From Stellaceae bacterium (GTDB lineage: Bacteria; Pseudomonadota; Alphaproteobacteria; ATCC43930; CGMCC-115725), in assembly GCA_035277405.1 (NCBI GenBank), contig DATEKP010000081.1, positions 1 to 32,640 on the forward strand: a DNA stretch of 32,640 bases. Direction: 5' to 3'. Positions 7,980 to 27,600 of this stretch are shown here, piece after piece. Positions within the stretch are counted from its first letter, which is position 1. Every line of letters starts with the position of its first letter. Made by a program: the position numbers and the translations under genes. The notes under the pieces were generated by a model. The model searched no databases and was not told the origin of the DNA. It saw only the letters and a list, made by a program, of their open reading frames with translations.

Positions 7980-7980
7980 T

Positions 7981-8802: not shown

Positions 8803-8924
8803 CGATCACATTCCGCCCCAGGGACCCCGTCCCACCCACCTCACCGCCTGGAAAGCGGCACATCTCGGGCCCGTTCGCTGCGCCTTTGCCCGGACGACAA
8901 GAGGCAGTAGCGGCAGCGTGCAGC

Positions 8925-9875: not shown

Positions 9876-9928
9876 GGTCGGGTACCGCCGTCGCCGGTGG
9901 GGCTTCCGCGTGGCGCGTTCGGTTCCGA

Positions 9929-10801
9929 TCAGAGGAGGCCATAAAAGGCGCTCTTCGTTACCCTTACCATGCCGGCTTCCACGACATAGTCGATCCCGAC
10001 ATCATACAGCAAATGGTCGAGATCATCGCGATGATCGCGCACAAACGCGACGAGATCGGAGGGAAACCGCTCCTGCTCCACAAACCCGATCAGCCCGGCC
10101 ACCGGAATGCGCGAGAAATAGACGCCGTCGCCGAACCTCTTGTTCGCAACAACGATGACGGCACAATCCAGCAGCTCGGGCCGCAGCACCGCATTGAGCG
10201 GATAACCGCCGAGATCGTGGTGAACCGAGCAACCGACCTTGGCGGCAACGTCGTCCATCTCGCGTCTCGCGTCGAAGAAGTAATATAGATTGGCAAGTCG
10301 CAAGCCAGACGCCGATTGCTCATAGCAGATGCCAGAGGAGACGCTGCTGCCGGGATTGCCTATATAAATGTTTATGGTATCGAGCGGACGCTCGCCGGCG
10401 ACGATCTCTTCGTCCAGATCGATCGAAAACATGAAATAGGGCCGCCCCTCCAGAGGCGGCAGGGCGCAGCGGACCAGCGGCGCCAGGATCGCGCGAACCC
10501 GCGTGATCGAGACCGCACGCTGCAGCCGCGCATAATCGTAAAAGTAGAATTCGAAGCGGAGCCGGCCGCCGAAATTCTTCACCCCGAAAACGGTCTGCCC
10601 GGGTCCTAACGCGTCGCGCAGCGCTCGGCACGCGGCGGCCAGACGCGGCATGCCGCCGGCGGCCTCCATCGACTGCCACAGCAAGTTGGCGCCGCGCAGC
10701 TTGCCGGCAGCGGGCGACAGGGGCCGGTAATCCCACAGGCAATAGTCGGCGTAGCGGTCGTGCGGCGCCGTCCGCTCGAGTGGCGGGGCAGCCCCAGTCA
10801 T
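9929..10801 (-). CDS. Hypothetical protein (290 aa), no recognised family
   Basis: An internal ATG at 10801 lies 10 nt after the upstream stop; the track start at 10963 would overlap the upstream gene. The product is MTGAAPPLERTAPHDRYADYCLWDY... It has repeated aromatic beta-strand-like motifs (RLRFEFYFYDY, YFMFSIDL, INIYIGN, LYYFFDA, VYFSRI) and ends SAFYGLL. Confidence 0.7.
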   Translation of the reverse strand: MTGAAPPLERTAPHDRYADYCLWDYRPLSPAAGKLRGANLLWQSMEAAGGMPRLAAACRALRDALGPGQTVFGVKNFGGRLRFEFYFYDYARLQRAVSITRVRAILAPLVRCALPPLEGRPYFMFSIDLDEEIVAGERPLDTINIYIGNPGSSVSSGICYEQSASGLRLANLYYFFDARREMDDVAAKVGCSVHHDLGGYPLNAVLRPELLDCAVIVVANKRFGDGVYFSRIPVAGLIGFVEQERFPSDLVAFVRDHRDDLDHLLYDVGIDYVVEAGMVRVTKSAFYGLL

Positions 10802-10811
10802 CGGGTTGGAC

Positions 10812-11609
10812 TCAATGAGCTTCGACTCCGTAGTAGAAGGTGACGAACTCCGCGCCGTCGCGCCCGATCCCGGCGGAGAGATGGCCGAGCGCGACGCTTC
10901 CGGCGCCGCCGAAGACCGGCGTTCCCTGCGACGGCGGCACCGCGAAATCGTCGAGCGCCGCATCGATCACATCACACACCTGGGCGAGGCACAGCCCGGC
11001 GTCATAGACGTTGAGATCACAGGATTGCCGCGGGTTTCCCGGCTCTTCAACCAGCATCATCAGCAGGCGCCCAGCCTCGGCCAAAGCGGCGACCCGGTCG
11101 AGCAGGCCGAGCGCGCAGCGCAGCGCCCGCGGCGCCTCCGCCGCCGGCAGAAGGACGCGCAGCCTCGCCTCGACAGCGTGACGAGTGCGGCAGTGAACCC
11201 AGCTGTATCGTGTCACGGAGCCCCCGCCGGGCCCTCTTACCGGCCACTTATACGCAAGGTGGACGAGCACGGAGCCGCCGTTCGCGGTCGCAATCGCGCG
11301 CCGCGCCGCGCCGGCATATTCGAAATAAATCTTCCGCAGCTCGAAACCCGGCCCGGCCTCGTGTCCGAAATGAACGAACTCGGCGTCATCGAATGCCCGC
11401 GGCAACTCATCCGCGAACTCGGCCGGGATTTCCAGCTCGCGGCCGATCCGGATCAGCCGGTCGAGCGGCGCCGGGCCCAGACCTGCCCGGTGGATGCTGA
11501 GCAGGCAGCGATCCGCCAGCACTGCGCCCGGCACGATCTTCACGGATTTTTCCATGCCGTAGGGTGCGCCCAGTTGCGCCACAAGCCTGACCAAATCCTC
11601 GGCCGGCAT
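10812..11609 (-). CDS. Hypothetical protein (265 aa), possible distant paralogue of the 9929..10801 product
   Basis: The ATG overlaps the halogenase stop (TGATG at 11611..11607). It contains FVHFGHEAGPGFELRKIYFEYAG, comparable to VFGVKNFGGRLRFEFYFYDYA in the neighbouring protein, and ends FVTFYYGVEAH. No known motif is recognised. Confidence 0.7.
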   Translation of the reverse strand: MPAEDLVRLVAQLGAPYGMEKSVKIVPGAVLADRCLLSIHRAGLGPAPLDRLIRIGRELEIPAEFADELPRAFDDAEFVHFGHEAGPGFELRKIYFEYAGAARRAIATANGGSVLVHLAYKWPVRGPGGGSVTRYSWVHCRTRHAVEARLRVLLPAAEAPRALRCALGLLDRVAALAEAGRLLMMLVEEPGNPRQSCDLNVYDAGLCLAQVCDVIDAALDDFAVPPSQGTPVFGGAGSVALGHLSAGIGRDGAEFVTFYYGVEAH

Positions 11610-13132
11610 CAGAGAGCCACCCGATGCAGTTGAGCGAGATGTGCCTTGTGGTCCGCCATCCGGGCGGCAACATCGCGATTTTCCGCCCTGATTCGGTCGA
11701 GCAGCTGCCAGACCTCGGCGGGGCGCGCGATCTCGGCCTCGACGATCAGCCGTCGCGGCAGCCGCTCGTTTCCGGCAAGAATGTAGAAATAGCTGGGCTC
11801 CGGAAACAGTTCCCGCACCGGGGTTTCAATGCGTCCGGTTTGGTCGTAGAGCGCCATCCTTTCGGCAAGGCTTTCGGGCAGGCTGACGCTGCGTGCATCG
11901 CGCCAAAACTCCTCGTCGCGCTGGGCCAGGACATAGTGCAATATGATGAAATCGCGCACCTGATCGTAGACTGCGCTCATCTGGTCGTTGTAGGCACGGC
12001 GCAGCGCCTCGTCAAAATCCCGATCCGGCCAATACTTGATCAGCAGTTCGACCGCTTTCTGGATCAGGTGAATGCCGGTCGATTCCAACGGTTCGACAAA
12101 ACCGGAAGAGAGCCCGACCGAGATGCAGTTGCGCACCCAGAACTCGGCGCGCCGACCGATGCGTATTTTCAGAAGCCGCGGATCAGCAGAGCGCTCTTTC
12201 ATTCCGGATTGCCGGATCAGCGCGGCGACCGCGGCCTCGGCCGAGATGTGAGCGCTCGAAAATACGTACCCGGTGCCGGTCCGGCTGTTCAACGGTATGC
12301 GCCATGTCCAGCCCGCGGGCATCGCCGTGGCGAGCGTATAGGGCGGAAACCGGTCGCCGCGCGGCAACGGCAACGCAACCGCGCGGTCGCACAGCATCAA
12401 ATGCGACCAGTCGATCCATTTTGCGCCGAGAGCCTGCTCGATCAGTCGTCCGGTAAACCCGGTTGCATCGATAAACAGGTCCCCGCCGAGCGTGCGATCG
12501 CCGCCGATGTCCAAGCCGGTAATATTGCCACGCTCGTCGAGCGTCACCTCTTTGACTTCGCCGAACAGGTGCTGAACGCCCTCGCCGGTCGAGATCTCGC
12601 GCAAATAGGCGGCGAAGGCGCTCGCATCGAGGTGATATGCATAGCTGCCCGTCTGCTCGATGATCGAGGTGCCGCGAGCCGGCTTCGGCGATTTCTCCAA
12701 TTCGCAGAGCCGCGCCTGCAGCGAATATTCCGAATAGGCAAGGCGACTGGCCGCCTCGACCCGCCGCTTCCGCCAGTAATGGAACAGGTCAAGCCCATTG
12801 ATCTGGGCGCCGCATAGCCCGAAGGCGTGCCAGTACGTGAAGTCTTGCCGCAACCAGCCGTCGAACCGGATAGCCAGCTTGTAGGTGGCCGAGCATCGGC
12901 GCATGAACTCCTGTTCGTCCAGGTTCAGCGCACGCACGAACTGCACCAGGCTCGGGATTGTCGCCTCGCCGACCCCGATTGTGCCAAGCGTCGGGGATTC
13001 TACCAGCACCACCTGGCACCCCAGCCGTCGCATGAAGCGGTTGAGATAAACCGCGGTAATCCATCCCGCCGTGCCGCCGCCGACAATGACGACGCGGTGA
13101 AGCCGCTGCGGCTGATCTGCGGCAGGCAGCAT
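11609..13132 (-). CDS. Flavin-dependent tryptophan halogenase family protein
   Basis: 507 aa. Motifs: VIVGGGTAGW (GxGxxG, 13064..13081), GVGEATIP, the lysine context ATYKLAIRF (K85), GWTWRIP (WxWxIP, 12293..12310) and GFVEPLESTG. A strong AGGAG lies 6 nt upstream of the ATG and overlaps the stop of the preceding gene. Confidence 0.92.
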   Translation of the reverse strand: MLPAADQPQRLHRVVIVGGGTAGWITAVYLNRFMRRLGCQVVLVESPTLGTIGVGEATIPSLVQFVRALNLDEQEFMRRCSATYKLAIRFDGWLRQDFTYWHAFGLCGAQINGLDLFHYWRKRRVEAASRLAYSEYSLQARLCELEKSPKPARGTSIIEQTGSYAYHLDASAFAAYLREISTGEGVQHLFGEVKEVTLDERGNITGLDIGGDRTLGGDLFIDATGFTGRLIEQALGAKWIDWSHLMLCDRAVALPLPRGDRFPPYTLATAMPAGWTWRIPLNSRTGTGYVFSSAHISAEAAVAALIRQSGMKERSADPRLLKIRIGRRAEFWVRNCISVGLSSGFVEPLESTGIHLIQKAVELLIKYWPDRDFDEALRRAYNDQMSAVYDQVRDFIILHYVLAQRDEEFWRDARSVSLPESLAERMALYDQTGRIETPVRELFPEPSYFYILAGNERLPRRLIVEAEIARPAEVWQLLDRIRAENRDVAARMADHKAHLAQLHRVAL

Positions 13133-13141
13133 GCGTTCTCC

Positions 13142-14209
13142 TCAAGCCGGCCGGTGCGCGGTTATCAGATGAAATTCCATGTCCAACTCGATTGCGCAAT
13201 GGTCGATGGCTTCGAAGCCGACCTCGGCGAGAGTCGTCAGATAAAGCTCCGCCGGCCTCAGGAAATGGACGAAGGCGAGCGCCGGGAAAAGCGCGTACGG
13301 CAGCCGCCGGCCGGCAAGATTGATCGGCGCGCGTTCGAAGATGACGAGCTTTCCGCCGGGCCGGACGGCGAGGTGCGCGCGCTCAATCAGCTGACGCGCG
13401 TCCGCGTCCGGCCAGTCATGCAGAACCGACTTGAACGACACCAGGTCGGCCGGAGACGGCAGCGGGCCGGTTCGCATATCGCCGGGGAAGAAGCCGATCC
13501 GCCCCGCCAGGCGTGGGCCGGCAGACCGTGCGATATGCTGCCGCCCAAGTTCGCAGACCACAGGCAGATCCAGTACGGTTGCCTGCAGCGAAGGGTTTCG
13601 CCGGCAGGCCTGAAGCGCGAACTCACCGGTGTTGCCGCCGAAATCGATCAGGCGCTCGACGTCGTCGATGCCGATCATATCGAGTGCCGGGGCAGCCTCA
13701 TACTTCGTCAGGCAGGTGGTAAATTGCGTCCAGGCGCGCGTCGCCTCCAGGTTTTCCGCGGTAATCTCGAAGCATCTGTCATAGCGGAACAGCTCGAATA
13801 CCTTCGAGCGCGCCATGAAACGCGGAAGGTCGGTCAGCAACGGCGTGAACAGCTCGTGGATATCGGGCCAAACCAGATCAGCGAAGGCAATCCTGCATTC
13901 CAACAGATCGCGGAAGCGAAGCCCCGCCTCGAATTCCGTGGTCAGCGCCACGACGTCGCCGGCACGTACAAGCACCGCATTCGACGCGAGCAAGTCTGAC
14001 AGAAGCCCGAGCCCCGCTGGACTGACGCGAAGCTCACGGCCCAAAACCGCCAGCGGGGTTGCCCCATTGCGCTGCAAAAAATCCACAAGGCCGAGTTCGA
14101 GGCCGCTCTTCAAAGCGCGCGCGTCGATTTCGCTGCCGAGGAAGGCGTTCACCTGCAGGAAGTCGAGATTGGCCGGCTGCACCAGCTGCCGCGCGCACCC
14201 CGGCAGCAT
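13142..14209 (-). CDS. O-methyltransferase family 2 (COMT-like, with N-terminal dimerisation/winged-helix region)
   Basis: 355 aa. SAM motif: LIDFGGNTGEFA. Also ATVLDLP, FFPGDM, and SVLHDWPD in the catalytic His region. The ATG overlaps the upstream stop by 1 nt (TAATG at 14211..14207). Confidence 0.88.
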   Translation of the reverse strand: MLPGCARQLVQPANLDFLQVNAFLGSEIDARALKSGLELGLVDFLQRNGATPLAVLGRELRVSPAGLGLLSDLLASNAVLVRAGDVVALTTEFEAGLRFRDLLECRIAFADLVWPDIHELFTPLLTDLPRFMARSKVFELFRYDRCFEITAENLEATRAWTQFTTCLTKYEAAPALDMIGIDDVERLIDFGGNTGEFALQACRRNPSLQATVLDLPVVCELGRQHIARSAGPRLAGRIGFFPGDMRTGPLPSPADLVSFKSVLHDWPDADARQLIERAHLAVRPGGKLVIFERAPINLAGRRLPYALFPALAFVHFLRPAELYLTTLAEVGFEAIDHCAIELDMEFHLITAHRPA

Positions 14210-15171
14210 TACGGAATCCGATCTTTCGGGCTCTCGGCGTCGTCGGCCGAACGCTCGGGCAGGTCGAAGGCGACCCGGCAGCGCAGGCCCGCCGGCACCT
14301 CATTGTCGGGGTTCGGCAGTTCGAGCCTGACGCCGAACGTGCCGCTCGCCGCATCGAAGACCTGGTCAACAACGGTCACCTTCGCCTTGCGGTCGCCACC
14401 GAACGGATCGTTCGGATGAACCGCCGCGATTTCGCCGATCTTGATGAATTTGTAATAGCGAACCGGCAGGTACGTCTCGACATTGAGCGGATTGATCTGT
14501 GCGATCGAGACGATCGTCGCTTCCTGATTGACGAATTCGCCCGGGCCGAGCGAGCGCTTCGTGACGACGCCGTCAATTGGGCTGCGGATTGTCCGCAGCG
14601 CCAGTTCGGCCTCAGACCGCGTCAGCTCGATCTGTGCCATGCGATGATTCAGCATTCCGAGCGCGAGTTCCTGTGTCGCCACATTGTATTCTGCCTTGGC
14701 GTTATCGACGTCCTGAACACTCGCCACGTGTTGCTGCTGCAACTCGAGCTTGCGCTTCAGGACAGCCTCCTTCTGGGTCAGCACCGCCTGCTTGGCCTGG
14801 ATTTCGGCGGTACTGTCGCCGCGCGCTTTGTTGGCGGCGACGACCGCCTGTTCGACGTCGGATTGCAGATGCGCGACGATCTGGCCCTTCTTGACGGTAT
14901 CACCGCGATCGACATTGACGCTGTCGAGTATGCTCGACACCGAGCTGCCGAGCTTCAGGCTGAGTGACGGCTCCGTCACGCAATCGAAGCTGGTCGCAGC
15001 GGCATTGGCGCCGCGCGCAAGGCCGGCGGCGCACACAAGCAGCAAGCCGCCGCGAAAGAGCACACGACCGCCGAGCATCGCGGCCTTACCAAAGACGTTC
15101 ATTCGCGATCCAACAAAAGGGATGGCAGAGCCGCCGCGGCGACCCGGCGGGGCTGGGCGGTGGCGTGTCAT
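14209..15171 (-). CDS. HlyD / RND-adaptor type periplasmic membrane fusion protein (MFP)
   Basis: It has an N-terminal anchor or signal (MNVFGKAAMLGGRVLFRGGLLLVCAAGLARG), a lipoyl-like motif (VDRGDTVKKGQIVAHL), a coiled-coil stretch, then RSPIDGVVTKRSLGPGEFV. Start 15171 forms an ATGA overlap with the SecA-like stop. ATG 15102 is an alternative start. Confidence 0.85.
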   Translation of the reverse strand: MTRHRPAPPGRRGGSAIPFVGSRMNVFGKAAMLGGRVLFRGGLLLVCAAGLARGANAAATSFDCVTEPSLSLKLGSSVSSILDSVNVDRGDTVKKGQIVAHLQSDVEQAVVAANKARGDSTAEIQAKQAVLTQKEAVLKRKLELQQQHVASVQDVDNAKAEYNVATQELALGMLNHRMAQIELTRSEAELALRTIRSPIDGVVTKRSLGPGEFVNQEATIVSIAQINPLNVETYLPVRYYKFIKIGEIAAVHPNDPFGGDRKAKVTVVDQVFDAASGTFGVRLELPNPDNEVPAGLRCRVAFDLPERSADDAESPKDRIP

Positions 15172-17177
15172 TCGGGCATTCCGGAAAAGGCCAGGGTCTT
15201 CGTTTGCCATTGATCGGAACGCAGCAGATCCGCCCGCATGCGGGCATGCAGCCGTTCCGCTCGCCGTTGCGCGTAATGCGAGGCTCCGCTGCCGACCCAG
15301 GCACCCAGCACGCGGGCCGCGACTTTTGCGATGCCAGAGAGGGCGATGCCGGTTTCGGTATCCATCAGCGGGTCCTCCAGCGACAGGATCGCCTCGAAAG
15401 ACCCCGGCTGTCCCTGGCGGCCTGCGCGCCCGGCGAGTTGCAGGTCAATCCGCCGCGCGTCATGGCGCTCGGTCATGATGACGTGCAGTCCGCCAAGCTC
15501 TTCGATCCCCTCGCCGAGATGGATGTCGGTGCCGCGGCCAGCCATGTTGGTTGCGACCGTGATGCGCCCCCGCTTGCCGGCCTCGGCGACGATCTCGGCC
15601 TCGCGCTTGTCCTGCGTCGCGTTGAGCACGGTGTGGGGCAGCCCGGCGGCATTCAGCGCCAAACTGGCGCGTTCGGAACTGGTGACCGAGCGTGTCCCGA
15701 TCAGGATCGGTACTCCGAGCTTATGCAGTACGGCGACGCGTGCCACGATGGCTCGCCACTTCTCCTCCTCGGTCGCGAGGACCACCTCGGGGCGGTGAAG
15801 CCGGCGCACAGGCTTCGCGGTCGGAATGGCAACGACCGGACGCCGGTAGACCCGCCAGAGTTCAGCGGCGACCGGCAGCAGCGTTCCACTCATTCCGGCG
15901 AGCCGTTGGTATCGCCGGAAGAAGCGCTGGTAAGTAATGCGCGCGATCGTGGTACGCCGAACGGACAGCTCGCAGTTTTCCTTGTGCTCGATCATCTGAT
16001 GCAGCCCGTCGCTCCACGAGCGGTCCGGCATGATGCGCCCGGTATATTCGTCGACGATGCACACCTTGCCGTCGGCAACCACGTAGTGCTCGCCGCGGTT
16101 GAAGAGATGAAGGGCCGCGAGGGCCTGGCGCGCGAGCTCCTCACGGCTCACGATACTGTGCCAATGGCCGCCGAGGCCTTCGGCGAAGGCGGTGATGCGA
16201 TCCTGCCCGGCGACGGTCAGGTGAACACGGCGCTCCTCGTTCGACGCGATGAAATCGGTGTTCGCGTCGAGCGAGCCGGCCAGCCGCAGCGCCGCGGCCA
16301 CGGTGTCGGCATCGAGCACATTGTCGGCCGCGCCGGAAATGATCAGCGGCGTTCTCGCCTCATCGACGAGCACGCTGTCGGCCTCGTCGACGAGGGCGAA
16401 GTGCAGACCCCGCAGGCGCAACTGCCGTGCCCGCGGCGTCGAGCTGTGCAGCGCCTCGACCTTCAGCGGCAGGTCGCCGGCCGCCTGGCCGAGGACCATG
16501 CGGTCCCGCAGATAGTCGAAGGCGAGCTCTTTGTTCGTGCAGTAGGTGATGTCGCAAGCATAGGCCGCCTGACGCTCGGCGGTGGTCTGGCCGCCGACGA
16601 CGATCCCGACGCTGAGGCCGAGGCTGGCGTAGAGCGGCCCCATCCATTCGGCATCGCGGCGCGCCAGGTAATCGTTGACGGTGACGACGTGGATCGGGAT
16701 GCCGGCCAACCCGGCCGTGCCGGCAACTAAGGTCGCGGTCAGCGTCTTGCCCTCGCCGGTCGCCATCTCGGCGAGCATGCCCCGCACCATGGCAAACGCA
16801 CCGACGAGCTGAACGTCGAAATGGCGCTGACCCAGGATTCGGCCCGACAGTTCACGAATCAACGCGAAGGCGCGGGCGGCCTCAGCATCGGGAAAGCCGT
16901 GCCGGCGCCGCAACGCGGCCGCAGTGTCGCGGATCGCCGCCGGAAACGCTTCGCCCGGCAACACCCGAAGCTCCGCCGCGTGGGCCTCGACGAGCGGCAG
17001 AATGCGCGTGAGGCGATGCATGCGCCAGCGCGCTGTCCGAGCTATCAGCTGCGCCTGGCCGGCGATCAGCGCGCCTTCCAGCGCGCTCTCCCGCCGTTCG
17101 GGCGCGTCGGCGTAGATGCGTTGGCGCGGCAATGCGACAGGATCGGCCGCGGTGCCCCAGGCAATGGCGCTAGACAC
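15168..17177 (-). CDS. Truncated SecA-like ATPase (NBD1, preprotein cross-linking domain and NBD2 only; no helical scaffold/wing or C-terminal tail)
   Basis: Motifs: HFDVQLVGAFAMVRGMLAEMATGEGKT (Walker A, 16743..16766), VVTVNDYLARRDAEWMGPLY, VDEADSVLVDEARTPLIISG (16332..16391), TNMAGRGTDI, and GGLHVIMTERHDARRIDLQLAGRAGRQGQPGS. Only about 60 aa follow the last motif. The start is uncertain: GTG 17177 overlaps the upstream stop by 8 nt, and TTG 17132 and ATG 17021 are alternatives. Confidence 0.85.
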   Translation of the reverse strand: MSSAIAWGTAADPVALPRQRIYADAPERRESALEGALIAGQAQLIARTARWRMHRLTRILPLVEAHAAELRVLPGEAFPAAIRDTAAALRRRHGFPDAEAARAFALIRELSGRILGQRHFDVQLVGAFAMVRGMLAEMATGEGKTLTATLVAGTAGLAGIPIHVVTVNDYLARRDAEWMGPLYASLGLSVGIVVGGQTTAERQAAYACDITYCTNKELAFDYLRDRMVLGQAAGDLPLKVEALHSSTPRARQLRLRGLHFALVDEADSVLVDEARTPLIISGAADNVLDADTVAAALRLAGSLDANTDFIASNEERRVHLTVAGQDRITAFAEGLGGHWHSIVSREELARQALAALHLFNRGEHYVVADGKVCIVDEYTGRIMPDRSWSDGLHQMIEHKENCELSVRRTTIARITYQRFFRRYQRLAGMSGTLLPVAAELWRVYRRPVVAIPTAKPVRRLHRPEVVLATEEEKWRAIVARVAVLHKLGVPILIGTRSVTSSERASLALNAAGLPHTVLNATQDKREAEIVAEAGKRGRITVATNMAGRGTDIHLGEGIEELGGLHVIMTERHDARRIDLQLAGRAGRQGQPGSFEAILSLEDPLMDTETGIALSGIAKVAARVLGAWVGSGASHYAQRRAERLHARMRADLLRSDQWQTKTLAFSGMPE

Positions 17178-19326
17178 GAAATTGCCCGAGGAAGAACTGC
17201 CGGATGGACCGCACGATGCGCCACGCGATCGGCTCGTCGGCGTGCTTGAAAAACACGTAAGCCCGCGAGCCCAGCATCGCGGAGCCGGTCGGTTCCAGCA
17301 ACTCGATGTCGAGCTGGAAAAATCGGAACAATGCCTGCGGATGCTGCATCTGCGACGGGTCCAGCGCGATCGAGCCGCCGCCACGCGTCGTCAGGGCGAG
17401 ACTCGGGACATCCTGCTGCGCCGCCGGCACCTCGCGCAGGATCTTGGCCGGGATCGGATGGTCGAGATCCTCGGCAAGATGGGCTTCGACGACGGTCGAG
17501 GGCTGCCGGATCAGGTCGACGTCGGTCTGCGGCGCCAACACCCGGACGACCGGATGACCATCACGCAGCACATAGCCGAGCAGCTCGCCTCGCTTGACGA
17601 AGCGCCCCAGCAGGCTGGCCGCCTCCTCGCCCGACGCCAGAATGAACCGCCCGCGCCGCGCGGCGTCGATGTCGAGGTCTTGCTCCTGCCTGCGGGCGGC
17701 GCTCAGCTGCTCCTTCAGGTGCTTCTGCTGGTCGAGGAACATCTCGGTCTGGACGCGATCGATCTGCCTGACCGCATCGAGGCGCTGCATTACTTCCTCA
17801 AGCTCGGCCTTGATCACGGTCACCTTGGCGTTGAGGATCGGGTCCGCCAGAACGAGCAGCGGTTCGTTCGCTTCGACTTCGCTCCCCGGCAGCGCCGCCA
17901 CCTTGGTCACGAACCCATCGGTCTTGGCGCGCAATTCGGCCTGATCGGGGACGATGACGACGCCCTCGGCGAAGGTCGAATAAGGGATGGGGATGCCGAA
18001 CAGCACCACGACGGCCGCCGCGACGGCGCCCCCGACGACCGCGAAGGCGCGCCGCCGGTGGCCCCGCAGCCGTTGGCTGGTGGCGAGAAATCTCAGCCCC
18101 TTGAACAGCGGCCAGATCGCGATCGCGATGACCGCCCACAGCGCCATGACGAGGCCTATGGCGAAAATCCGCGTCGCGAGGAACAGCGCAATCCCAAGCG
18201 ATACGGTCATCCGGTAGGCGAACGACAGAACCGCATAACCGAGCAGCCATTTCGCCTCGCTCGGCACGATCACCGGCGTCTCGACGTCGTCGACCCTGAA
18301 GAGATGCCGCTGTATCAGGTAGAAGATGTAAGCATTGGCGCGCGTCCCGAGATTGGGAACCTCGATCAGGTCGGAGAAGATGTAATACCCGTCGAAGCGC
18401 AAGAGCGGATTGCCGTTGAACAGCAGCGTCGAGACGCCGCCGATCAGCATGACGTTAAAGGCGAGCGTGCGGCCGAGGCCTGGGCTGCCCTGCACCCACA
18501 GGATCATCGCGATTGCAGCGAGCGTCATCTCCACCATGATGCCGGCCGCCCCGACGATGATCCGGCGTCGCTTCTGCCCGAACGCAGCGGACGCCGAGGC
18601 ATCGACGTAGAGGACCGGGATGAAGACGAGCAGCATGACGCCGACCTCATGCACCTCGCCGCCCCAGATTTTGGTCGCGTAGGCGTGGCCGAGCTCGTGC
18701 AGGCTTTTGACGAATGGATAGACGCAGATGATGACGGCGACGTTTTCGGCCGTCAGCACCCTGTCAGACACGTCCGAGGTCAGCTCCGGCGCGTGCAGCG
18801 CCGCCAGCACCAGGCCGACCAGCACGATTGCGAGCCACCCGACGAAGCCTGCCGCCGTGAATACCGGCCGCATAAACGGCATGGTCAGATCGAGCAGCCG
18901 GTTGGGATCGAACAGCGGGATGCGCACGGCCATCGGGTTGCGCAGCTGCTGCATCATGCGGCGCTGGCTCGCCTGGTCCGACCGCTTCACCATTTCGTCG
19001 AAATCGGGCGGGGTCTCGCCCCACAGCAAATCCGCGCTGTGCAGCTGGGCGAGAAGCTGGATCGTCTCGTCCTGTGTCGGCGGATCGTCGCTGGCCCGTC
19101 GCCCGGCGGCCTCCCAGATCGCACGCACGGTGCGACGGCCGTCCATCAAGCAGACCATCAGGTTGGCGATCGGCGACAGCGAGTGGAACCGCCCGGTCTG
19201 ACGGTCCTGCAGGATGTACCAGGCGCGGCGGCGAAACACCTGGCGGTGCAATGTCGTATGCGGCCGCAGCCGCGGCTTCAGATCGGCAACTCTGTACCAG
19301 GAGCTGCTGAACAGAGAGCGGCTCAC
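17170..19326 (-). CDS. Fusion protein: PqqD-like (RRE-like) N-terminal domain + site-2-protease/M50 membrane metalloprotease core + HlyD-like C-terminal domain
   Basis: 718 aa with a GTG start. Residues ~25-100 (AWYILQDRQTGRFHSLSPIANLMVCLMDGRRTVRAIWE...ETIQLLAQLHSADLL) resemble PqqD. HELGH is at 18685..18699 and NPLLRFDG (S2P NxxPxxxxDG motif) at 18388..18411, within about 6 or more hydrophobic segments. The C-terminal third (LRAKTDGFVTKVAALPGSEVEANEPLLVL, a coiled coil, then YVFF) resembles an MFP. Confidence 0.88.
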   Translation of the reverse strand: MSRSLFSSSWYRVADLKPRLRPHTTLHRQVFRRRAWYILQDRQTGRFHSLSPIANLMVCLMDGRRTVRAIWEAAGRRASDDPPTQDETIQLLAQLHSADLLWGETPPDFDEMVKRSDQASQRRMMQQLRNPMAVRIPLFDPNRLLDLTMPFMRPVFTAAGFVGWLAIVLVGLVLAALHAPELTSDVSDRVLTAENVAVIICVYPFVKSLHELGHAYATKIWGGEVHEVGVMLLVFIPVLYVDASASAAFGQKRRRIIVGAAGIMVEMTLAAIAMILWVQGSPGLGRTLAFNVMLIGGVSTLLFNGNPLLRFDGYYIFSDLIEVPNLGTRANAYIFYLIQRHLFRVDDVETPVIVPSEAKWLLGYAVLSFAYRMTVSLGIALFLATRIFAIGLVMALWAVIAIAIWPLFKGLRFLATSQRLRGHRRRAFAVVGGAVAAAVVVLFGIPIPYSTFAEGVVIVPDQAELRAKTDGFVTKVAALPGSEVEANEPLLVLADPILNAKVTVIKAELEEVMQRLDAVRQIDRVQTEMFLDQQKHLKEQLSAARRQEQDLDIDAARRGRFILASGEEAASLLGRFVKRGELLGYVLRDGHPVVRVLAPQTDVDLIRQPSTVVEAHLAEDLDHPIPAKILREVPAAQQDVPSLALTTRGGGSIALDPSQMQHPQALFRFFQLDIELLEPTGSAMLGSRAYVFFKHADEPIAWRIVRSIRQFFLGQFRV

Positions 19327-19333
19327 TGTGGCC

Positions 19334-21268
19334 TCACATCCAGCGCCAGAACCATAGCTGCAGCCAATCGATCACCGGATGTACCCAAATCCACGCGAGA
19401 TTGCGGCGGCCGACGCGGATTTTGCCGATACCCTCCATGCCGGGCCTGAGCTGCGGCGGGTTTTGCGTGAGCCGTCCTTCGACGCGAAACACATTGCGCC
19501 CGGCATGCGCCTCGGCGATCGGCGTGACCTTGTCGATCAGGAACGGCAATCCCGTGTTGGGCAACGCGGTGACGATCAGATCGCCGGTCTGGCCGGGCGC
19601 CACGGCGCGAACCTCGCGCTCGTCCACGTCGAGGATCACCCGATAGGCGGCAAGCGGCGCGATTTCGAACAGCACCTGGCCGCGCTGCACCGACGTGCCG
19701 ACCAGCTGGCTCAGGTCGCCCGACACCACCAGCCCCGCTATCGGCGAGCGCAGCTGAATGCGGGCGAGCTGCGCATCGATCAACTTGATGTGCGCGACCG
19801 CCTGATCGATCTGGGCGCGAATAACATTGATCGCCGCCGGCTCGCGCGCCGCCAGCGCCTTGTCGTATTCATACTGATGCTGCTGTCGTTCGGTCACCCA
19901 TTTGAGCCGCTCGAGCAGCAGGTCGCGGTCTTCCAGCGAGGCGACGAGTTCTCCTTCCGCGACCTTGTCGCCGGGGCGCACGTCGGCGTCCTTGATGAAC
20001 CCGTCATACGGCGCCACGATCGCGCGCCGCACGAGGCCTTCGATCTGGGCATCGGCATTGACGTTGTAGGTGCCCTGGGCCAGCGACAGGAACAGCGCCG
20101 CGGCGGCAATCGCGATGACCACGAGCTTGCGCACCAGGTGGCCGGGGCCGACCAGCCGCACAATTTGCCGACGCAAGCTCTCACCGGTCTTGACGATCAG
20201 CCAACGGTCGTTGCGGCGCTTTTCTTCAAGCACCGGGCCGACGATCGCGACCGCCAGCTCGAGCAATTCGACCGTGTCCTGCTCGAACGGCTCGTCGGCC
20301 GGACGCTCGAACGTCAGCGCGCCGACGAAGCTGTCGACGACCAGCATCGGGACGGTGAGGACCTGCCCATTGTGGTGCAGGCGCGACAATTCCGCATGCG
20401 CGGTGGTCGCGATCAGCTGGTCGGCCGGCGCCGGATAGAGAATGAGACAGCGCTGATCGAGCGCCTCGTCCATCGCCTTGGCGAGCCCGCTCACCAAAAC
20501 CATGCGCTCACCAAACTGCGCGGTATGGGAGATGACCTTGACGGCGACGGCGCTGCCGATGCGGATTCCGAGACTGACGCGGGTGCATTTGCAGCGGACC
20601 GCCAGCGCGGTGACAGCGGCCAGCGCCGCCGCTTCGAAACCATCGCGCGCGAGCGCATCCGCCAGGAGGTCGAGCGCCGCCCGCGAGCGCTCGATCAGCC
20701 GTTCCTGCTCGATGCCGCGAGCCTGCCGCAGCCGCTCGCGAATCCATGCGACACCCCATTGCAGCTGGCGCAGCGCGGACTTGATGTCGTCGGGCCGGGC
20801 GCCGTGCAACGTCACGCCCGCCACCCCCTTCAGCTCGCCGTCAAGCTGGATCGGCAGGGCGACATGAGCCGCCGCAGCCTCTCCGGTGCGTCCGGCGGCA
20901 TCGGTGTCGGCGACGCCCCGCCGCTCGCGCAAAGCCAGTTCGGCGGCCTCGATCAGCGGCGCCGAGCGGGTCGAGCCTTCCGGCCAGAATGCCACCGCCT
21001 GGAAACTGTTGGGGGCGGCGGCGGCGAGCAGAACGACGCCACGCGCCGCCCCCGCAATGATCTGACATTGCAATGCGAGCCAAGCGCCCGCCATTTCGAA
21101 CAGCGTTTGCGAGTCGCCGAGGCGGCGCCACAAGGCGGGCTCGAGCGACGCGACCGGCGCACCGACGTCATCCGCCTCATCGGCCGCCGACGGCGCGCCG
21201 GCCGGTTCGCTCGCCGCGGCCGCCATCGATCCGGCCCGCAAGGAAGATTGCTGGGGGGGCGGAGTCAT
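19334..21268 (-). CDS. GAF-GAF-TM-HlyD membrane fusion protein
   Basis: ATG 21268 lies 5 nt after the DUF3467 gene's stop; track start 21343 would overlap that gene. There are two GAF-like regions (…GVVLLAAAAPNSFQAVAFWPEG…ALPIQLDGELKGVAGVTL and …VSLGIRIGSAVAVKVISHTAQ…VPMLVVDSFVGALTFER). These are followed by a TM segment (LVVIAIAAAALFLSLA) and an MFP core (IVAPYDGFIKDADVRPGDKVAEGELVASL, a coiled coil, then LRSPIAGLVVS). Confidence 0.8.
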   Translation of the reverse strand: MTPPPQQSSLRAGSMAAAASEPAGAPSAADEADDVGAPVASLEPALWRRLGDSQTLFEMAGAWLALQCQIIAGAARGVVLLAAAAPNSFQAVAFWPEGSTRSAPLIEAAELALRERRGVADTDAAGRTGEAAAAHVALPIQLDGELKGVAGVTLHGARPDDIKSALRQLQWGVAWIRERLRQARGIEQERLIERSRAALDLLADALARDGFEAAALAAVTALAVRCKCTRVSLGIRIGSAVAVKVISHTAQFGERMVLVSGLAKAMDEALDQRCLILYPAPADQLIATTAHAELSRLHHNGQVLTVPMLVVDSFVGALTFERPADEPFEQDTVELLELAVAIVGPVLEEKRRNDRWLIVKTGESLRRQIVRLVGPGHLVRKLVVIAIAAAALFLSLAQGTYNVNADAQIEGLVRRAIVAPYDGFIKDADVRPGDKVAEGELVASLEDRDLLLERLKWVTERQQHQYEYDKALAAREPAAINVIRAQIDQAVAHIKLIDAQLARIQLRSPIAGLVVSGDLSQLVGTSVQRGQVLFEIAPLAAYRVILDVDEREVRAVAPGQTGDLIVTALPNTGLPFLIDKVTPIAEAHAGRNVFRVEGRLTQNPPQLRPGMEGIGKIRVGRRNLAWIWVHPVIDWLQLWFWRWM

Positions 21269-21273
21269 TCGGC

Positions 21274-21591
21274 CTATCGCTCGATGTCGAGCGCCCCGTG
21301 CCTCGCCTCGTATTCGCGCAGCACGCCGCCGAGCACGGTCCACAACCGCTTTGCCGCAAACGGCGTCAGGACGATCCGGTTGGTCAGATCGACCACGACT
21401 TGACCCGCATCAGCGACATTCCAGGTCCGGTTCATCCCGAAGAACAGATCGACCTGCTCTCGTGTGCTCTGCACGTTGACGACATTGGCGAAATGCGTCG
21501 CCATCTCGTTGTCGTTCCACTGCACCGACGGAGCCGCAGGGGCGTCGGCGGCGGGCGGTTGCGTCCCCGAACCGGCGGAGGTCTTTGCCAT
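21274..21591 (-). CDS. DUF3467-like small protein (105 aa)
   Basis: ATG 21591 is preceded by AGGA about 13 nt upstream. The N-terminus MAKTSAGSGTQPPAADAPAAPS is disordered. The core WNDNEMATHFANVVNVQSTREQVDLFFG...VVDLTNRIVLTPFAAKRLWTVL matches my recollection of the DUF3467 signature (Y/F-aN-v-v-hs-eEf-lDFG). Confidence 0.72.
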   Translation of the reverse strand: MAKTSAGSGTQPPAADAPAAPSVQWNDNEMATHFANVVNVQSTREQVDLFFGMNRTWNVADAGQVVVDLTNRIVLTPFAAKRLWTVLGGVLREYEARHGALDIER

Positions 21592-21683: not shown

Positions 21684-24600
21684 TCAGGTTTCGAACCACG
21701 CTCTGGCGGCGACGCGGCCGAAATCGCGCAGTGCGGTCAGCCACGACGACGACGGCACCACCATCGCTTCATCCGCCGAAGCATAGGCCGACTGCCCGGG
21801 CTGCGACGGATTCGCATCGGCCGCCGCGCGAGCGTCGGCGACGACGATCGTCAGCGGCTCGGGCTGCGGGGCCACAAAAGTCCCGGCCGCCTCGTCGAAG
21901 ACCCAGGTCTGGCGCTGCCCGCCGGACCCCGGCGCGGGCTGGTGGCGGGCGACCGCGAAACTGATCTCGCTGTCGCGAACCGCCCGGATGACATCGTCCG
22001 GCGAGGCGAACGCAAACTGGCGCGCTGCCTGCGACGCCTCGGCCTTGTCGCCGAACAGGATCTCAGTTCCGCCGTCGGCAGTGATCGGGGCGGCCCCGAT
22101 GTCGCCGGGCAGCACCAACCGAACCGCCTGATCGGCCGTGTCCGGCGTCAAGAACTGCGCCTCGCCCGCCGCCGCCAGCAGGCGCTGCATGGTCCCTGTG
22201 CCGAACGGACCAAACGGTGCATCCGCGTCCGGCGCAGTCTGCCCGATGGTGTCCGCTTGGCGCGGCGGCAAGCCGGCGAGGGCCGGCGGGGGCAGCGTGA
22301 TCGATGCCGCGCCGGGCACCGAGAGCTCGTCGAGCAGCGGGAAGACGGATTGCGGCGGCGGTTGAACCGACGATCGGTCTGCCGGTCGGTCAGCCACCGG
22401 CGCGGTCGCAACCGGCAACAGCAGCGGCGCGCTCTCGTCCTGCAAGGCCGGCGCCGGCGTGCTCATGGCCGGCACCGGCTGCAGGGTTGCCGGGGTATCC
22501 TCGCTTGCCAGCGGCGCCAGGACCGTCTGGACCGGCGGCGCCAGCCGTGTTCCGGTGCTGAGGTATTCCGACATCAGGCCGCTGGTCGTATCGGCGAAGC
22601 CGAGCACGTGCGCGAGCTCGTGCATCTCGACGGTCAGCAGATCCATTGCGCCGGCGGCAGCGCTGCCCGGCAGGGCGACAAGCCCGTCTGACGCAGTCAG
22701 CAGGAAGGCGTCGTCCGTCGTGGGGTTCGGGTCGATAAACCAGCCCCAGCCCGCCGCGTTGGGCGACAACGTGATCGTGTCGCCGACCGTGATGCCGAGC
22801 CCGTCGTCCGGCAACGCCGCGATGTCGATCGTCACCGCCCGCAATTCGGCGATCGTCGCGGCATCGAGCGAGTAGACCGCCGTCAGCCGGTCGATCGCGG
22901 CGCCGAGCTCGGCGTCGACCTCGCTCATGGTCAGCGACGTGACCCCGACGGCCGCCGCGGTTGGCGCCGAGGCCGCGTACATGTGCTGGATCGTCTCGGT
23001 CTTCAGGTTCGAATCGTCGGTGAAGACCGTGCTCTGCGTGAAGGTCGCTTTGCCGGTCAGCACCGCGAGGCCGAACTGCCCGCCGGTCAGCACCGAGTTG
23101 TAGGTGTAGCTGAGCAGCTGCAGCCCGTTGACCTTGAGGACGACGAAATTGCCGTTGGCGTTGATCTCGATCGCATAGCTCGTGCCGCTGGCGATCGTGA
23201 AGGACGCCTTGGCGTCGAATACGAAGCCGCTCTTGCTCGTGTAGTGGCCGAGCGCAACCTGGTTGGTGCCGCGCAGCAGCACCGCGAATTTGTAGTAGCC
23301 GGGATTGTCGTAAGCATAAACGAGGCCAGCCTCGCCGGTCGTCTGCAACGTCGCCTTGAGATCGAGCGTCGCGTTCGGCTGCAGGCTCAGCGTGCCGGCC
23401 GGCAGCCCGAACGCCGGGCCGATGTCGATCAGCTGGATGGCCGCACCGCCCGACGGCGCGCCCTTTGCGGTCGAGGCCGTTCCGGTATCGCTGCCGGGCG
23501 CCATCGTCCAGCTGCCCGAGCTCGGCGGCGCGTAATACTGCGCGGTGCCGCCGGTGTACGTCTCGGTATAGGTGAAGCTGGTCGGCGGCACCGGCTGCTG
23601 GATCACCAGGTTGCTGAAGCTCGACAGTGAGTTGTTGGCGCCGAGCCCGACGATGCCGTAGTTGACGCCGATATTGACGCCGTTCACGACGTTCCACGGA
23701 AACAGGAAGCTGACCGCCATGCTCGCGTTGTTGTTGACGATCAGGTAGGCGTAGTTGTTGTTCAGCGACAGGAACAAATTGTACCTCGTGCCGGCGACGA
23801 TTTGAGCCGGCGCCTGCGCGTCGATGACCCACGGCACCGCCTGCGTCGGATCGTAATGGCCGATCTCGACCTTGTTGATCGACTCGTCGATGCCGGCGAA
23901 CTTGAAATTGCTCGGGCTCTGGTAGTCGAAAATGATGTAGGCGTTCGACTTGTAGCCGGCGGTCGGCTTGCCGGTCGCCACCGACGCGGTCAGTTCGAAA
24001 TAGTTGGGCAATGTGTTATTCGGATCGAACACCGCGAAGGAATTGGTAAAGAGGGCGGGCGGGGTCGCGTTGAGCAGGCCGTTCTTGACCGTCCAGGTGC
24101 CGCTGACCGGCTCGACCGCTCCCAGCGTGTTGTTGGTGAAGCTGGCGGAGGCGATGACCGTGCGCGAGCCGCCCGGGATGTGGCCCTGCGCCACCGCCTG
24201 GTTCGGCGCGCCGCCCTGCATCTGCCAGAACGGATCGACCTGCGTCACGAGGCCGAGCTCGCCATAGGGCTCGCCGTTGCGCGCCGGGTCGGCGATGCTG
24301 ATGTCGTTGCTGACATTGTCGGCACCGTCGGCGGCCGACAGCTGGTAGAGGTAGGCGAACAGCGCCGGGTTGACGTCGCGGCTGACCGTCGGCAGGCCGT
24401 AGGGCGCAAACGGGATGACGTATTGGTTGAACTCGCCGCGCCAGGCGATCAGCCGGTCGTTGGCGCCGCCGGCGATCAGCGTGTTGCGCCCGGCGCCGGC
24501 GAAGATGACGCTGTGCATGTAGGCGTTGTTGTCGGTGACGTCGTTCAGCCCCGGCTGCGATCCACCTGTCAGGTTGCGCTGACCGTTCAGCAGATCGTCG

Positions 24601-27600
24601 CCAAACCCGCCATAGATGTCGTTGGTGCTGTTGGCGCCATCGATCCAGTTGTGCCCCATATCGCCGAACAGCGCCTTGAAGCCGACCGTGTAGGTCTTGT
24701 TATCGCCGTTGAGCAGACCTTCGTTCTGGTTGAAGTTCAGGAAGAAACCGTTCAGTCCAAGCTGCGCGCCGTTCTGCCCGATCGTCGCGTAACCAGGCGT
24801 TACATGCGGCGCAAATTCGTTGTAGTCCGAGAACAGGAAGGACGTGGTGGCGCCGCCGCCGTTGAACTGCAGGATGCCGTTCGTGATCTGGCTGCCGGTC
24901 GGCACCATCACAGGCAATCCGGTGGCCGGATTGATGGCGGGCTGCCAGCCGTCGTAGCTGACCGGCGCGCTCGGGTCCTTGATCGGGTTGTTCCAGAATT
25001 TCGGCAGCGCCTGCGCGCCGGAGATCGCGTCGTCGCCGAACCCGCCGTGAATGAACGTGTTGCCGAGGCCGCCGTAGATAATGTTGTCGTCCCGCTTCGT
25101 CTGCAACGACAGGTCGACGAACGACGAGTCAATGCCGTGGTTCTGAATCTGGATGGCCCAGTCGCTGGCGCCGAGCGGGTCGGGGTTGGCCGGCGTCAGG
25201 TCGGCGACATAGGTCAAGGCGCCCGGCAGGTTGATCGTCGATTGTTCGGCCTTTCCCGGCGTGCTGATGAACTGGTCGATCTGGCTCGCTGCCAGCGGCG
25301 CGATGCCGTAAAGCGGCTCGCCCAGGCTCACCATCGAGTTCGGGCTTTTGGGGTCGCTGCTGAGGCTGTTGCGGGCGAGCCCTAGCCGGCCGTCGCCGCC
25401 GAGAATGCCGGTGCTGCCCGTGTAGTACACGGTGTTGCCATTGATCACAGACGACGGCGCCGCGGTGCCGTTGATGACGATGTTGCCGCCGTAAGAGGCG
25501 ACAAGGCCATTCCCGGCCGCAATCCAGTCGCTGCCGGAACCGCCGATGATCTGGTCGTTGCCGGAACCGCCGAACAGCGTGTCGTTGTTCGGGCCGCCAT
25601 AGATCTGCGTGTCGCCGGATTCGGCGTGCACCTCGGCCGTCCCGCCGATGATCTGGATATGGTTGAAATTGAACGGCTGTCCGCCATAGACGTAATCGAG
25701 CAGCTGGACGGCGCGCGGGATCACGAACTGCGTGCCGCCATAGTAGTTCGTCGTCTGCGACAGCGTGGGAGCGAACGGGTCGTAGATATAGCTGTTCACC
25801 GTGCCCAGCGCTCCGGGGTGGTAGTAATATTCGGCGCCGTAGGTCGGGCTCGTCGTGCCGCCGGTCATGTCGGCGAAGCCGGTATCGTAGTTGTAGGTCA
25901 GGAACCCGCCCAGGTCGCCGATCTGGTCGTTGCCGACCAGGTCGTAGATGTCGCCGTTATTGGCGACGATGACCGACGCGTTGCGCGCATGCGCGTTGCC
26001 GGCGTTGGTGCCGGTCGGCAGTTCGTCGTAATTGCGCGCTATCTCGGTGCCGGCGCCGGCGAAGATGATGACGTTGCCGCTGTCCGGCCGCTGTGACGCC
26101 AAGTGCAGGGTGAACAGGTCGGAGTTGCCACCGATGATGTCGTTCTGCCCGATGCCGCCGAAGATCACGGTGCTCGCGCTTGACGTGGCGCCCGGCAGGT
26201 TGCCGCCGCCCTCGATGTAGTTGTTGCCGTCGGTCGTCGCCTCGAACGACGGGTTGACGTGCAAGGCGCCGAGCGCCATCTCGTACTGGATCGCGCCGGT
26301 CGCCGCATCGACCCCGACCTGCAGCAGGACCGGCGCGTCGCGCTTGGCGTAGACTTGACTGTTGACGGCGTAGCCGGTGGCCGCGGCGCCGGTGATCGTG
26401 AAGGGGCCGCCGGCATTGCCGCTCACCGTGACGCCGCTGATGCCGGCCGCCGTAATCGCCGCATTCAGCGCTGCCGCCGTAGGAGTGGCAGCGGCGCTGA
26501 TGCCGTCGATCGTCACACCGTTCAGCGTCAGGCTGTAGCTCGTCGTGAACTGGTTGAGCGTCAGCGTCAATCCGCCGCTCTGGTTCGGCGCGAGCGTCAC
26601 CGGGTGCAGCGCACCGAGGATCGAGCCGGCGCCCTGGATCGCGTTGGTGCCCGGCCCGCCGAAGATCATGTTGTCGCCCGGACCGCCGGCAATGTAGTTG
26701 TTGCCGTAATCGCTCGCCCAGTTGTTGGTCGCGGTGGCATTGCCGGTGTTGACCGACTCGTCGAGCGCGGCGATGTGCAGATAGTCCCACATCGGCAGAT
26801 AGCCCGACTGGGTGCGGAACACGCCGCCGGCGCTGCCCTGCAAGACATTCACTTGGTCCGTCGTTGCGGTGTCGGTGTAGATCGTCGCGGCGGTCAGCGT
26901 CTGGAAGCGCGGATCGTTGGCCGTCCCGCGCGTCAGCGTGACGTTGTTGCCGAAGATCAGATCGTCGCCCTTGCCGCCGCTGATCCAGTCGTTGCCGGCG
27001 CCGCCGATCAGGATGTCGTCGCCGCCGCCCGTCGGGGTCGGTCCGCTCGTCGCTTCGCTCGGCGCATAACCCTGGATGATGTTGTCGACCGGCGCGCTGC
27101 TGATTGTGGTTCCGTTGTACGTCGTGCGCCCCGGCCCCTTGATGTCGATGGCGCTGACCCCGGCATTGTTGGGGTCGTTGAAATCGGTGGTGATCGCGGT
27201 CGCGTGCACGTAGCCGAAACCGGTGCCATCCATCGTCACCTGGCCGTTGTCGCCGACGATCAGATCGCTGATCGTCTCGCCGTTATCGACGCCGCCGGGG
27301 CCTGCCCAGATATTGTCGTCGCCGCTGCCGCCGATGATGATGTTGCGCAGCGCGCCGCCATAGATCGTGTCGTTGCCATAATCGCTGAAGTCACTCGACT
27401 GGATTGTCAGCAGGCCGGTTGCGAGGTCGGTCAGCGCGCTGCCGGCGCCGCCGTAGAGCACCTGCCCGTTCTGCCCGATGATGATGTTGTTGCCGGTATT
27501 GCTGGCGTAACTGCCCTGGCTGCCGGTAATCGTGTTGTTGCCGGTGCCGCCGATGATCACGTCATTCCCGTTGAGGCCGCCGACGATGACATTGTTGCCG

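Follow-up and report, generated by a model that had tools for sequence, protein, structure and literature searches.

The locus described here raises the question of what substrate is served by a single polypeptide that combines peptide recognition, intramembrane proteolysis and a periplasmic adaptor. It lies in a 32,640-nucleotide stretch of DNA from a Stellaceae bacterium (contig DATEKP010000081.1 of assembly GCA_035277405.1), which was analyzed whole and is referred to here as the window. The gene in question encodes a protein of 718 amino acids (aa), referred to here as the fusion protein (Table 1). Our data indicate that this single chain consists of a cytoplasmic RRE domain, a core of seven transmembrane (TM) helices of the site-2-protease (S2P) type and a periplasmic domain of the HlyD/membrane fusion protein (MFP) type. 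A preliminary description of the gene had proposed these domains, a compatible topology and a coupling of processing to export. All three held, and coupled recognition, cleavage and export in one chain is the best reading, while the framing missed the family, the operon and the giant substrate. We think that there is about an even chance that the fusion protein recognizes and removes leaders as an inner-membrane subunit of an envelope-spanning exporter of giant surface proteins, similar to a type I secretion system (T1SS).

Three domains in one membrane protein

Searched as a single sequence against Pfam, the fusion protein matched PqqD (E 1.3e-4), Peptidase_M50 (E 5e-4) and HlyD_3 (E 5.6e-4), each just short of the gathering threshold. 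With profile and structure evidence included, all three domain assignments are well beyond chance, and the profile searches and the Foldseek comparisons of AlphaFold2 (AF2) models bear out the assignments first proposed. The full-length AF2 model has a predicted local distance difference test score (pLDDT) of 88.7 and a predicted template modeling score (pTM) of 0.75. The GTG start codon is preceded by a GAGG Shine-Dalgarno-like sequence, lies 7 nt past the stop of the upstream gene and is shared in position by the homologues with which the protein was aligned.

The N-terminal domain has an RRE-type fold. Pfam PqqD (PF05402) covers residues 37-101 with 22.7 bits against a gathering threshold of 23.4, many homologues carry a precomputed match to the same family, and a 30-sequence profile of residues 1-140 reaches PqqD 3g2b (E 7e-5, residues 18-102). 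The AF2 model of residues 1-140 has a pLDDT above 90 at residues 11-100 and the order b-b-b-a-a-a, with strands at 24-31, 34-41 and 47-50 and helices at 52-60, 67-77 and 85-97. Among its best Foldseek matches in the PDB are two leader-bound lasso-peptide RREs, TbiB1 (5v1u; TM-target 0.76, root-mean-square deviation 3.3 Å) and 6jx3 (TM-target 0.70); weaker matches (E 0.07-0.4) are to the RREs of CteB, LynD and MibB. RREs bind the leaders of RiPPs (peptides made by ribosomes and modified after translation) by strand addition to beta3. The domain is conserved across the homologues of the fusion protein.

The closest family match of the protease core is the NCBIfam daptide intramembrane metalloprotease (NF041824; E 8.7e-43), followed by a match to YydH/LiaK (E 8e-12). 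Since the daptide match spans residues 18-404, it already takes in the RRE, and its score of 146.9 is below the equivalog cutoff of 300. Pfam PF02163 (Peptidase_M50) scores 19.8 bits against a gathering threshold of 27.2, a family profile reaches the solved S2P MJ0392 (3b4r) at E 0.26, and the Foldseek PDB list for the full-length model is dominated by MFP matches. An alignment of 54 homologues (36-63% identity) shows no variation at H210, E211, H214, N304, N306, P307, L308 and D312, and this constancy of the catalytic residues speaks for an active protease. The preliminary description had named E211 and D312 as catalytic and had located both zinc-ligand motifs; the residues are right and the motif coordinates, listed in Table 1, are exact.

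AF2 and hydropathy place TM helices at approximately residues 158-177, 193-220, 252-279, 284-304, 357-386, 388-416 and 424-444. The HExxH motif is inside predicted helix 193-220, the NxxPxxxxDG motif is at the end of helix 284-304, and a re-entrant beta-hairpin is modeled at residues 228-241. The loops at residues 247-256 and 406-426, which are rich in lysine and arginine, lie on the side of the cytoplasm. With seven TM helices, the chain is predicted to be N-in/C-out, and the helices, hydropathy and lysine and arginine counts together suggest a cytoplasmic orientation for the RRE and the active site and a periplasmic one for the MFP domain. The domains are thus predicted to lie on compatible sides of the membrane, and the topology, the N-terminal fold and the conservation of the active-site motifs all favor the preliminary description.

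The last TM helix (424-444) precedes the lipoyl strands of the MFP domain in the model. Both hairpins that had been described from the sequence are present, the lipoyl hairpin at residues 459-503 and the alpha-hairpin as helices 496-519 and 524-549, and a beta-barrel follows them. Foldseek with the full model found MacA (3fpp, 2.6e-11) and MexA (1vf7, 8e-11), and the family profile reached MacA (9e-9) and the T1SS MFP 8dck (2e-7). MFP domains closest to those of RND/MacAB drug pumps, and an RND pump near the operon in one related locus (L001), would fit a protein for small-molecule or envelope-stress efflux in which the M50-like domain is a mere scaffold and the adjacent giant genes are incidental. 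We consider this very improbable given the invariant catalytic residues, the conserved RRE, an operon that encodes no RND, ABC or MFS transporter and an association with giant proteins that holds both ways (see below).

The fusion is not singular. A word-indexed search returned at least 7,316 relatives, and an exhaustive search of representatives of 50%-identity clusters returned 11,741 at E<1e-3 and 4,047 at E<1e-30. Of the best 150 matches, nearly all are approximately 715 aa long and align end to end, and the fusion is therefore a fixed architecture of about 715 aa in a very large family. Source databases name its members 'putative peptide zinc metalloprotease protein', 'PqqD family peptide modification chaperone', 'peptidase M50' or 'HlyD family efflux transporter periplasmic adaptor subunit'. 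The family occurs in bacteria including Alpha-, Beta-, Gamma- and Deltaproteobacteria, Nitrospira, Myxococcota, Flavobacteriales and Sulfurovum. Among named organisms, Xanthobacteraceae have the closest relatives, and the G+C content of the window is 66%; these two features alone would suggest a member of the Hyphomicrobiales as the probable source.

In 2015, a comparative genomics study (Kamneva, Poudel & Ward, PLoS One; PMC4452313) described a four-gene locus that includes an M50/HlyD protein. Its authors noted the HlyD domains, called the Peptidase_M50 similarity 'rather weak' and the biological role of the locus 'completely unknown', and proposed that the locus encodes a machine related to T1SSs, in which the SecA_DEAD protein would be the ATPase and the M50 protein a membrane component or possible pore. 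The words PqqD, DUF3467, RTX and cargo are absent from the main text of that paper, and we found no relevant follow-up among the papers citing it in the literature searched. Literature searches on PqqD, M50 and HlyD combined found nothing, and those on DUF3467, on LEPR-XLL and on DUF4347/SapC/LEPR-XLL found nothing relevant. The N-terminal RRE of the M50/HlyD protein and its link to LEPR-XLL giants thus appear to be unreported in the literature searched.

Giant proteins next to the operon

Gene order was counted by tblastn over 82 related loci from the host groups listed above, since a greedy longest-ORF (open reading frame) caller chose antisense ORFs in GC-rich loci. A gene for a protein with GAF and HlyD domains (GAF/HlyD) is directly upstream of the fusion gene in 77 of the 82 loci, and a gene for a SecA-like ATPase is directly downstream in 73. 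A small HlyD gene is present in 59 loci, and a DUF3467 gene lies upstream of the GAF/HlyD gene in at least 31. TolC-like outer membrane efflux protein (OEP) genes are adjacent in 6 loci.

On gene-order maps, most loci with sufficient flanking DNA have a gene encoding more than 2,000 aa immediately next to the operon. These giants mostly lie either just upstream, on the same strand, or immediately downstream, are often cut by the 10-kb flank, and reach 10,068 and 10,071 aa in L001 and L002. They fall in several unrelated repeat families, including an RTX type (the one in the window) and a DUF4347 type. What they share is the N-terminus: every giant whose N-terminus is inside its locus begins with a basic stretch followed by hydrophobic-E-x-LEPRxLLSAD. 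A regular expression found the LEPR motif 17 times in 17 loci, each time at the N-terminus of an ORF, and not once in reversed-sequence controls; 10 of the 17 loci hold complete ORFs of at least 490 aa. Three N-termini compared with the NCBIfam model NF012209 ('LEPR-XLL') scored 25-29 bits, above the cutoff of 17.

The reverse search gave a similar picture. A DNA pattern back-translated from LEPRLLLSAD recovered 120 loci from metagenomes, and nearly all of the matches are at the N-terminus of a long ORF and in its frame (some ORFs are longer than 4,000 aa within the locus). Homologues of the operon or accessory genes were present in the short flanks of 29 of the 95 loci with an N-terminal motif and in 18 of the 47 loci that have 3 kb or more of DNA upstream, usually in the order fusion gene, SecA-like gene, small HlyD gene and then the LEPR-XLL giant. 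The operon and LEPR-XLL giants are therefore associated in both search directions. Giant LEPR-XLL proteins, rather than a small RiPP-type peptide, are probably the cargo.

The giant of the window is of the RTX type. Its frame is open to 32639 with the first ATG at 32531, and the homologue fragments P0270 and P0271 align upstream of that ATG, so the listed ORF of 3,615 aa is a minimum length. When its first 500 codons were used for a protein search, the matches were 16 short fragments only, with no N-terminus among them. We did not adopt L068 as proof that the family of the window giant carries LEPR-XLL, since the similarity is approximately 30% in repeats, the gene is frameshifted and the case is weak. 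Residues ~172-301 of the 3,615-aa ORF (31629..32016, minus strand) match Pfam DUF3383 (E 1.4e-23), and short metagenomic proteins and fragments align to the same region.

At the C-terminus the giants are heterogeneous. RTX-type giants carry a conserved metzincin-like zinc-protease motif, 'MDLLTVxxHELxHxxGxxH', approximately 100-310 aa from the C-terminus. It occurs in the window at 22596..22646 on the minus strand (MDLLTVEMHELAHVLGF, with a weak match to NCBIfam metallo_LGF) and in the giants of L004, L007, L013, L014, L019, L037 and L051; from its motif, the region may be an autoprocessing domain. The DUF4347-type giants of L050, L070 and L079 end with a hydrophobic motif (approximately GYxxWLLRxGxLxxSxLSSxPxWxxxDPxPVL) and then charged residues, which may serve as a membrane anchor or second sorting element.

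The operon of the window also contains accessory enzyme genes, and these bear on a different reading, in which a small modified peptide is recognized, cleaved and exported as in RiPP systems and is tailored by the radical SAM enzyme, methyltransferases and halogenases. The window operon does encode a radical SAM protein, two methyltransferases and two halogenase-like proteins, the N-terminal domain has the RRE fold, and both of the best family matches of the fusion protein, the daptide protease and YydH/LiaK, are RiPP leader peptidases. We nevertheless regard a RiPP system as quite unlikely. The largest gap between genes of the window operon is 122 nt, which leaves no room for a precursor gene, and neither a daptide-like (ELExMEAP-like) nor a LEPR-like motif was found in the window. 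The score to the daptide model is far under its equivalog cutoff, and the conserved partners are MFPs, the SecA-like ATPase and giant proteins. Accessory enzyme genes are next to the operon in only about 5 of the 82 loci, and in metagenomes they adjoin LEPR-XLL giants.

A subset of the accessory genes, consisting of the radical SAM gene, the genes for the two unknown proteins (344 and 265 aa) and the O-methyltransferase gene, recurs beside the operon in L001, L005, L006 and L007 and, in metagenomes, next to LEPR-XLL genes (L105, L138 and L176). Since the set recurs beside LEPR-XLL genes, we assign it to the giant-protein system and not to a separate RiPP cluster. This suggests that the accessory enzymes modify the giant protein.

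A proposed export route and its rivals

By analogy with the binding of RiPP leaders, the RRE of the fusion protein would bind the N-terminal LEPR-XLL leader of the unfolded giant. The leader would then be presented to the M50 active site and removed, similar to what has been proposed for MpaP and daptide leaders. We suggest that the SecA-like motor, which has nucleotide-binding and preprotein-clamp domains and no SecY-engaging scaffold, would dock where the complex is exposed to the cytoplasm and push the giant chain N-terminus first. Three MFP-type proteins would form a periplasmic conduit to a TolC-like channel, and RTX repeats would fold with Ca2+ outside the cell. As far as the literature searched reaches, the hypothesis that an RRE reads LEPR-XLL leaders appears to be new.

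Several observations weigh against export by such a complex. Most LEPR-XLL loci of the reverse search have no operon gene in their limited flanks, and the N-terminus of the window giant is beyond the window end, so its LEPR-XLL leader is not visible. The SecA-like gene is missing in L058, L063, L070, L073, L074, L076, L077 and L080 (approximately 10% of the loci), and the motor would have to be dispensable or supplied in trans there. No obvious protein-conducting pore was identified among the operon products, and to our knowledge S2P folds are not known as translocons. RTX giants could instead be exported by a classical ABC-type T1SS encoded elsewhere. In Methylobacterium extorquens AM1, the M50, SecA and HlyD genes are barely expressed in exponential phase (PMC4452313).

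Some of these points would fit a processing or release module. The giant would be exported by other means, such as an ABC-type T1SS, and the complex would anchor it via LEPR-XLL and cleave it under regulation by the GAF protein, a logic that may be likened to the control of LapA by LapD/LapG. The intact S2P active site is in keeping with this, as S2Ps are known as regulated intramembrane proteases, and so are the GAF sensory domain of the partner MFP, the loci that have no SecA-like motor and the absence of an evident pore-forming subunit. Without a trans-envelope conduit, however, three MFP-type proteins and the occasional adjacent TolC-like OEP are hard to explain, and the SecA-like protein keeps its preprotein cross-linking domain. 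Pfam searches found no ABC transporter in the window operon, and none is among the conserved neighbors. We therefore treat processing and release as a serious rival, yet an unlikely one, and favor the T1SS-like exporter as set out above.

The proposed exporter shares parts with several described systems. Classical T1SSs (HlyB–HlyD–TolC) likewise use an MFP and a TolC-type conduit for unfolded RTX proteins. There an ABC transporter energizes export, whereas here no ABC transporter is present and the ATPase is SecA-like; the signal of HlyA is C-terminal, whereas the putative signal here is the N-terminal LEPR-XLL. Bacteriocin ABC exporters fuse a C39 leader peptidase to the exporter and so couple cleavage to export. 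Their C39 domain is carried by the ABC protein, while in the fusion protein an intramembrane M50 protease is joined to an MFP. RseP, SpoIVFB and MjS2P (MEROPS M50) share with the fusion protein the HExxH and NxxPxxxxDG motifs in TM helices near the cytoplasmic face and the re-entrant beta-hairpin; the fusion protein has no PDZ or CBS domain, and RRE and MFP domains take the place of these regulatory domains.

Another of these systems is MpaP, the 'RRE-dependent intramembrane peptidase' (a site-2 leader peptidase) of daptide RiPP clusters (PMC10028931). MpaP likewise has an N-terminal RRE fused to an HExxH intramembrane metalloprotease, and its family model, NF041824, is the best family match of the fusion protein. 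In contrast, MpaP has no MFP domain, acts on short peptides and leaves export to separate proteins. As the fusion protein scores half of the NF041824 cutoff (146.9 vs 300), it is not an MpaP orthologue. The daptide leader motif ELExMEAP loosely resembles the E-x-LEPR of the giants.

The 2015 locus of M. extorquens AM1 (META1p2402-2399) has the same order, GAF(HlyD) – Peptidase_M50(HlyD) – SecA_DEAD – HlyD/biotin-lipoyl, with an occasional OEP, and all four module genes are contiguous on the minus strand in the window (14209..21343). The proposal of a T1SS-like machine is also the same (PMC4452313). There the M50 protein is mainly a possible pore, whereas here it would be a leader peptidase, and the present analysis adds to the earlier account the RRE domain, an active site that is invariant and the link to LEPR-XLL giants.

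Other genes of the window and their neighbors

The operon of the window is one tightly packed unit on the minus strand (gene gaps -152 to +122 nt) in the order giant RTX protein, DUF3467 protein, GAF/HlyD protein, fusion protein, SecA-like ATPase, small HlyD protein and accessory genes (Table 1). Neither a TolC-family OEP nor SapC is encoded in the window.

Table 1. Positions of the fusion gene, its domains and motifs, and the other operon genes within the window
Feature	Position	Strand	Basis or remark
Fusion gene, RRE–M50(S2P)–HlyD/MFP, 718 aa	17170..19326	minus	GTG start 19326, stop 17170-17172
RRE/PqqD-like domain, residues ~18-102, three strands followed by three helices	19021..19275	minus	predicted cytoplasmic
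M50 core, seven TM, residues ~142-445	17992..18903	minus	NCBIfam daptide_HExxH, AF2, hydropathy, lysine and arginine counts
HELGH, HExxH zinc/catalytic motif, residues 210-214	18685..18699	minus	H210, E211, H214 invariant
NPLLRFDG, NxxPxxxxDG motif, residues 306-313	18388..18411	minus	third zinc ligand D312
Predicted periplasmic HlyD/MFP domain, residues 446-718: lipoyl hairpin, alpha-hairpin, beta-barrel	17173..17991	minus	Foldseek, profile
Giant RTX-repeat protein, >3,651 aa, putative cargo	21684..32640	minus	HemolysinCabind; ORF open to window end
DUF3467 protein, 117 aa	21274..21627	minus	Pfam PF11950, E 1e-15
GAF + HlyD/MFP protein, ~620-669 aa	19334..21343	minus	Pfam GAF, HlyD_3/HlyD_D23; true start probably downstream of 21343
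SecA-like ATPase, ~669 aa: nucleotide-binding domain 1, preprotein cross-linking domain, nucleotide-binding domain 2	15168..17177	minus	Pfam, NCBIfam
Small HlyD/MFP protein, ~280-333 aa, start uncertain	14209..15210	minus	Pfam HlyD_D23/HlyD_3; NCBIfam RND_mfp above cutoff
Seven accessory genes, tightly packed, same strand	7158..14209	minus	Pfam, gene gaps

The SecA-like gene has no scaffold or wing domains and ends where those would begin; NCBIfam SecA models are matched to position ~550 of ~800 only. Its GTG start at 17177 overlaps the stop of the fusion gene by 8 nt, and the same overlap is found in L001 and L002. In the variant of the operon without a SecA-like gene, the small HlyD gene is directly after the fusion gene, and several of these loci keep a LEPR-XLL giant immediately downstream.

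Invariant residues of the DUF3467 protein are E57, F63, G64, N66, W69, R84, P89, A91, A92, K93 and R94. Searches of PDB sequences with the single sequence and with a 16-sequence profile detected no relative; the idea that DUF3467 proteins might be SecB-like chaperones found nothing in these searches, and we make no such claim; a role as chaperone or adaptor would be speculative. The seven accessory genes encode an O-methyltransferase, an FAD tryptophan-halogenase-like protein, unknown proteins of 265 and 344 aa (neither with a Pfam or NCBIfam match), a radical SAM protein, a WelO5-like Fe/2OG enzyme and a methyltransferase.

Among the related loci, 10 carry a SapC-family gene (including L013, L018, L019, L034 and L051), which is interleaved with the operon and at times lies between the fusion gene and the SecA-like gene. 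The sapC gene of Campylobacter fetus sits in the sapCDEF operon for type I secretion of the S-layer. An outer-membrane beta-barrel protein other than the TolC-like OEP is encoded upstream in L001, L002 and L006.

Gram-negative bacteria, both environmental and host-associated, commonly have giant LEPR-XLL proteins, for which an NCBIfam label is 'LEPR-8K', and the route by which they leave the cell is not stated in the literature searched. The RRE–S2P subunit and its LEPR-XLL neighbors provide a testable mechanism and a signal-receptor pair. It is plausible, although we place it somewhat below an even chance, that the family represents a widespread, so far unrecognized type of secretion distinct from the ABC-driven T1SS, in which an RRE reads the leader, an S2P trims it, and a truncated, SecY-independent SecA drives giants of 2,000-10,000 aa through an MFP/TolC-like conduit. 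If true, this would be a SecA-powered, ABC-independent secretion route of the TolC type, and RRE function would extend past RiPP biosynthesis. A leader tag together with four or five genes would then be a handle for engineering the export of very large proteins.

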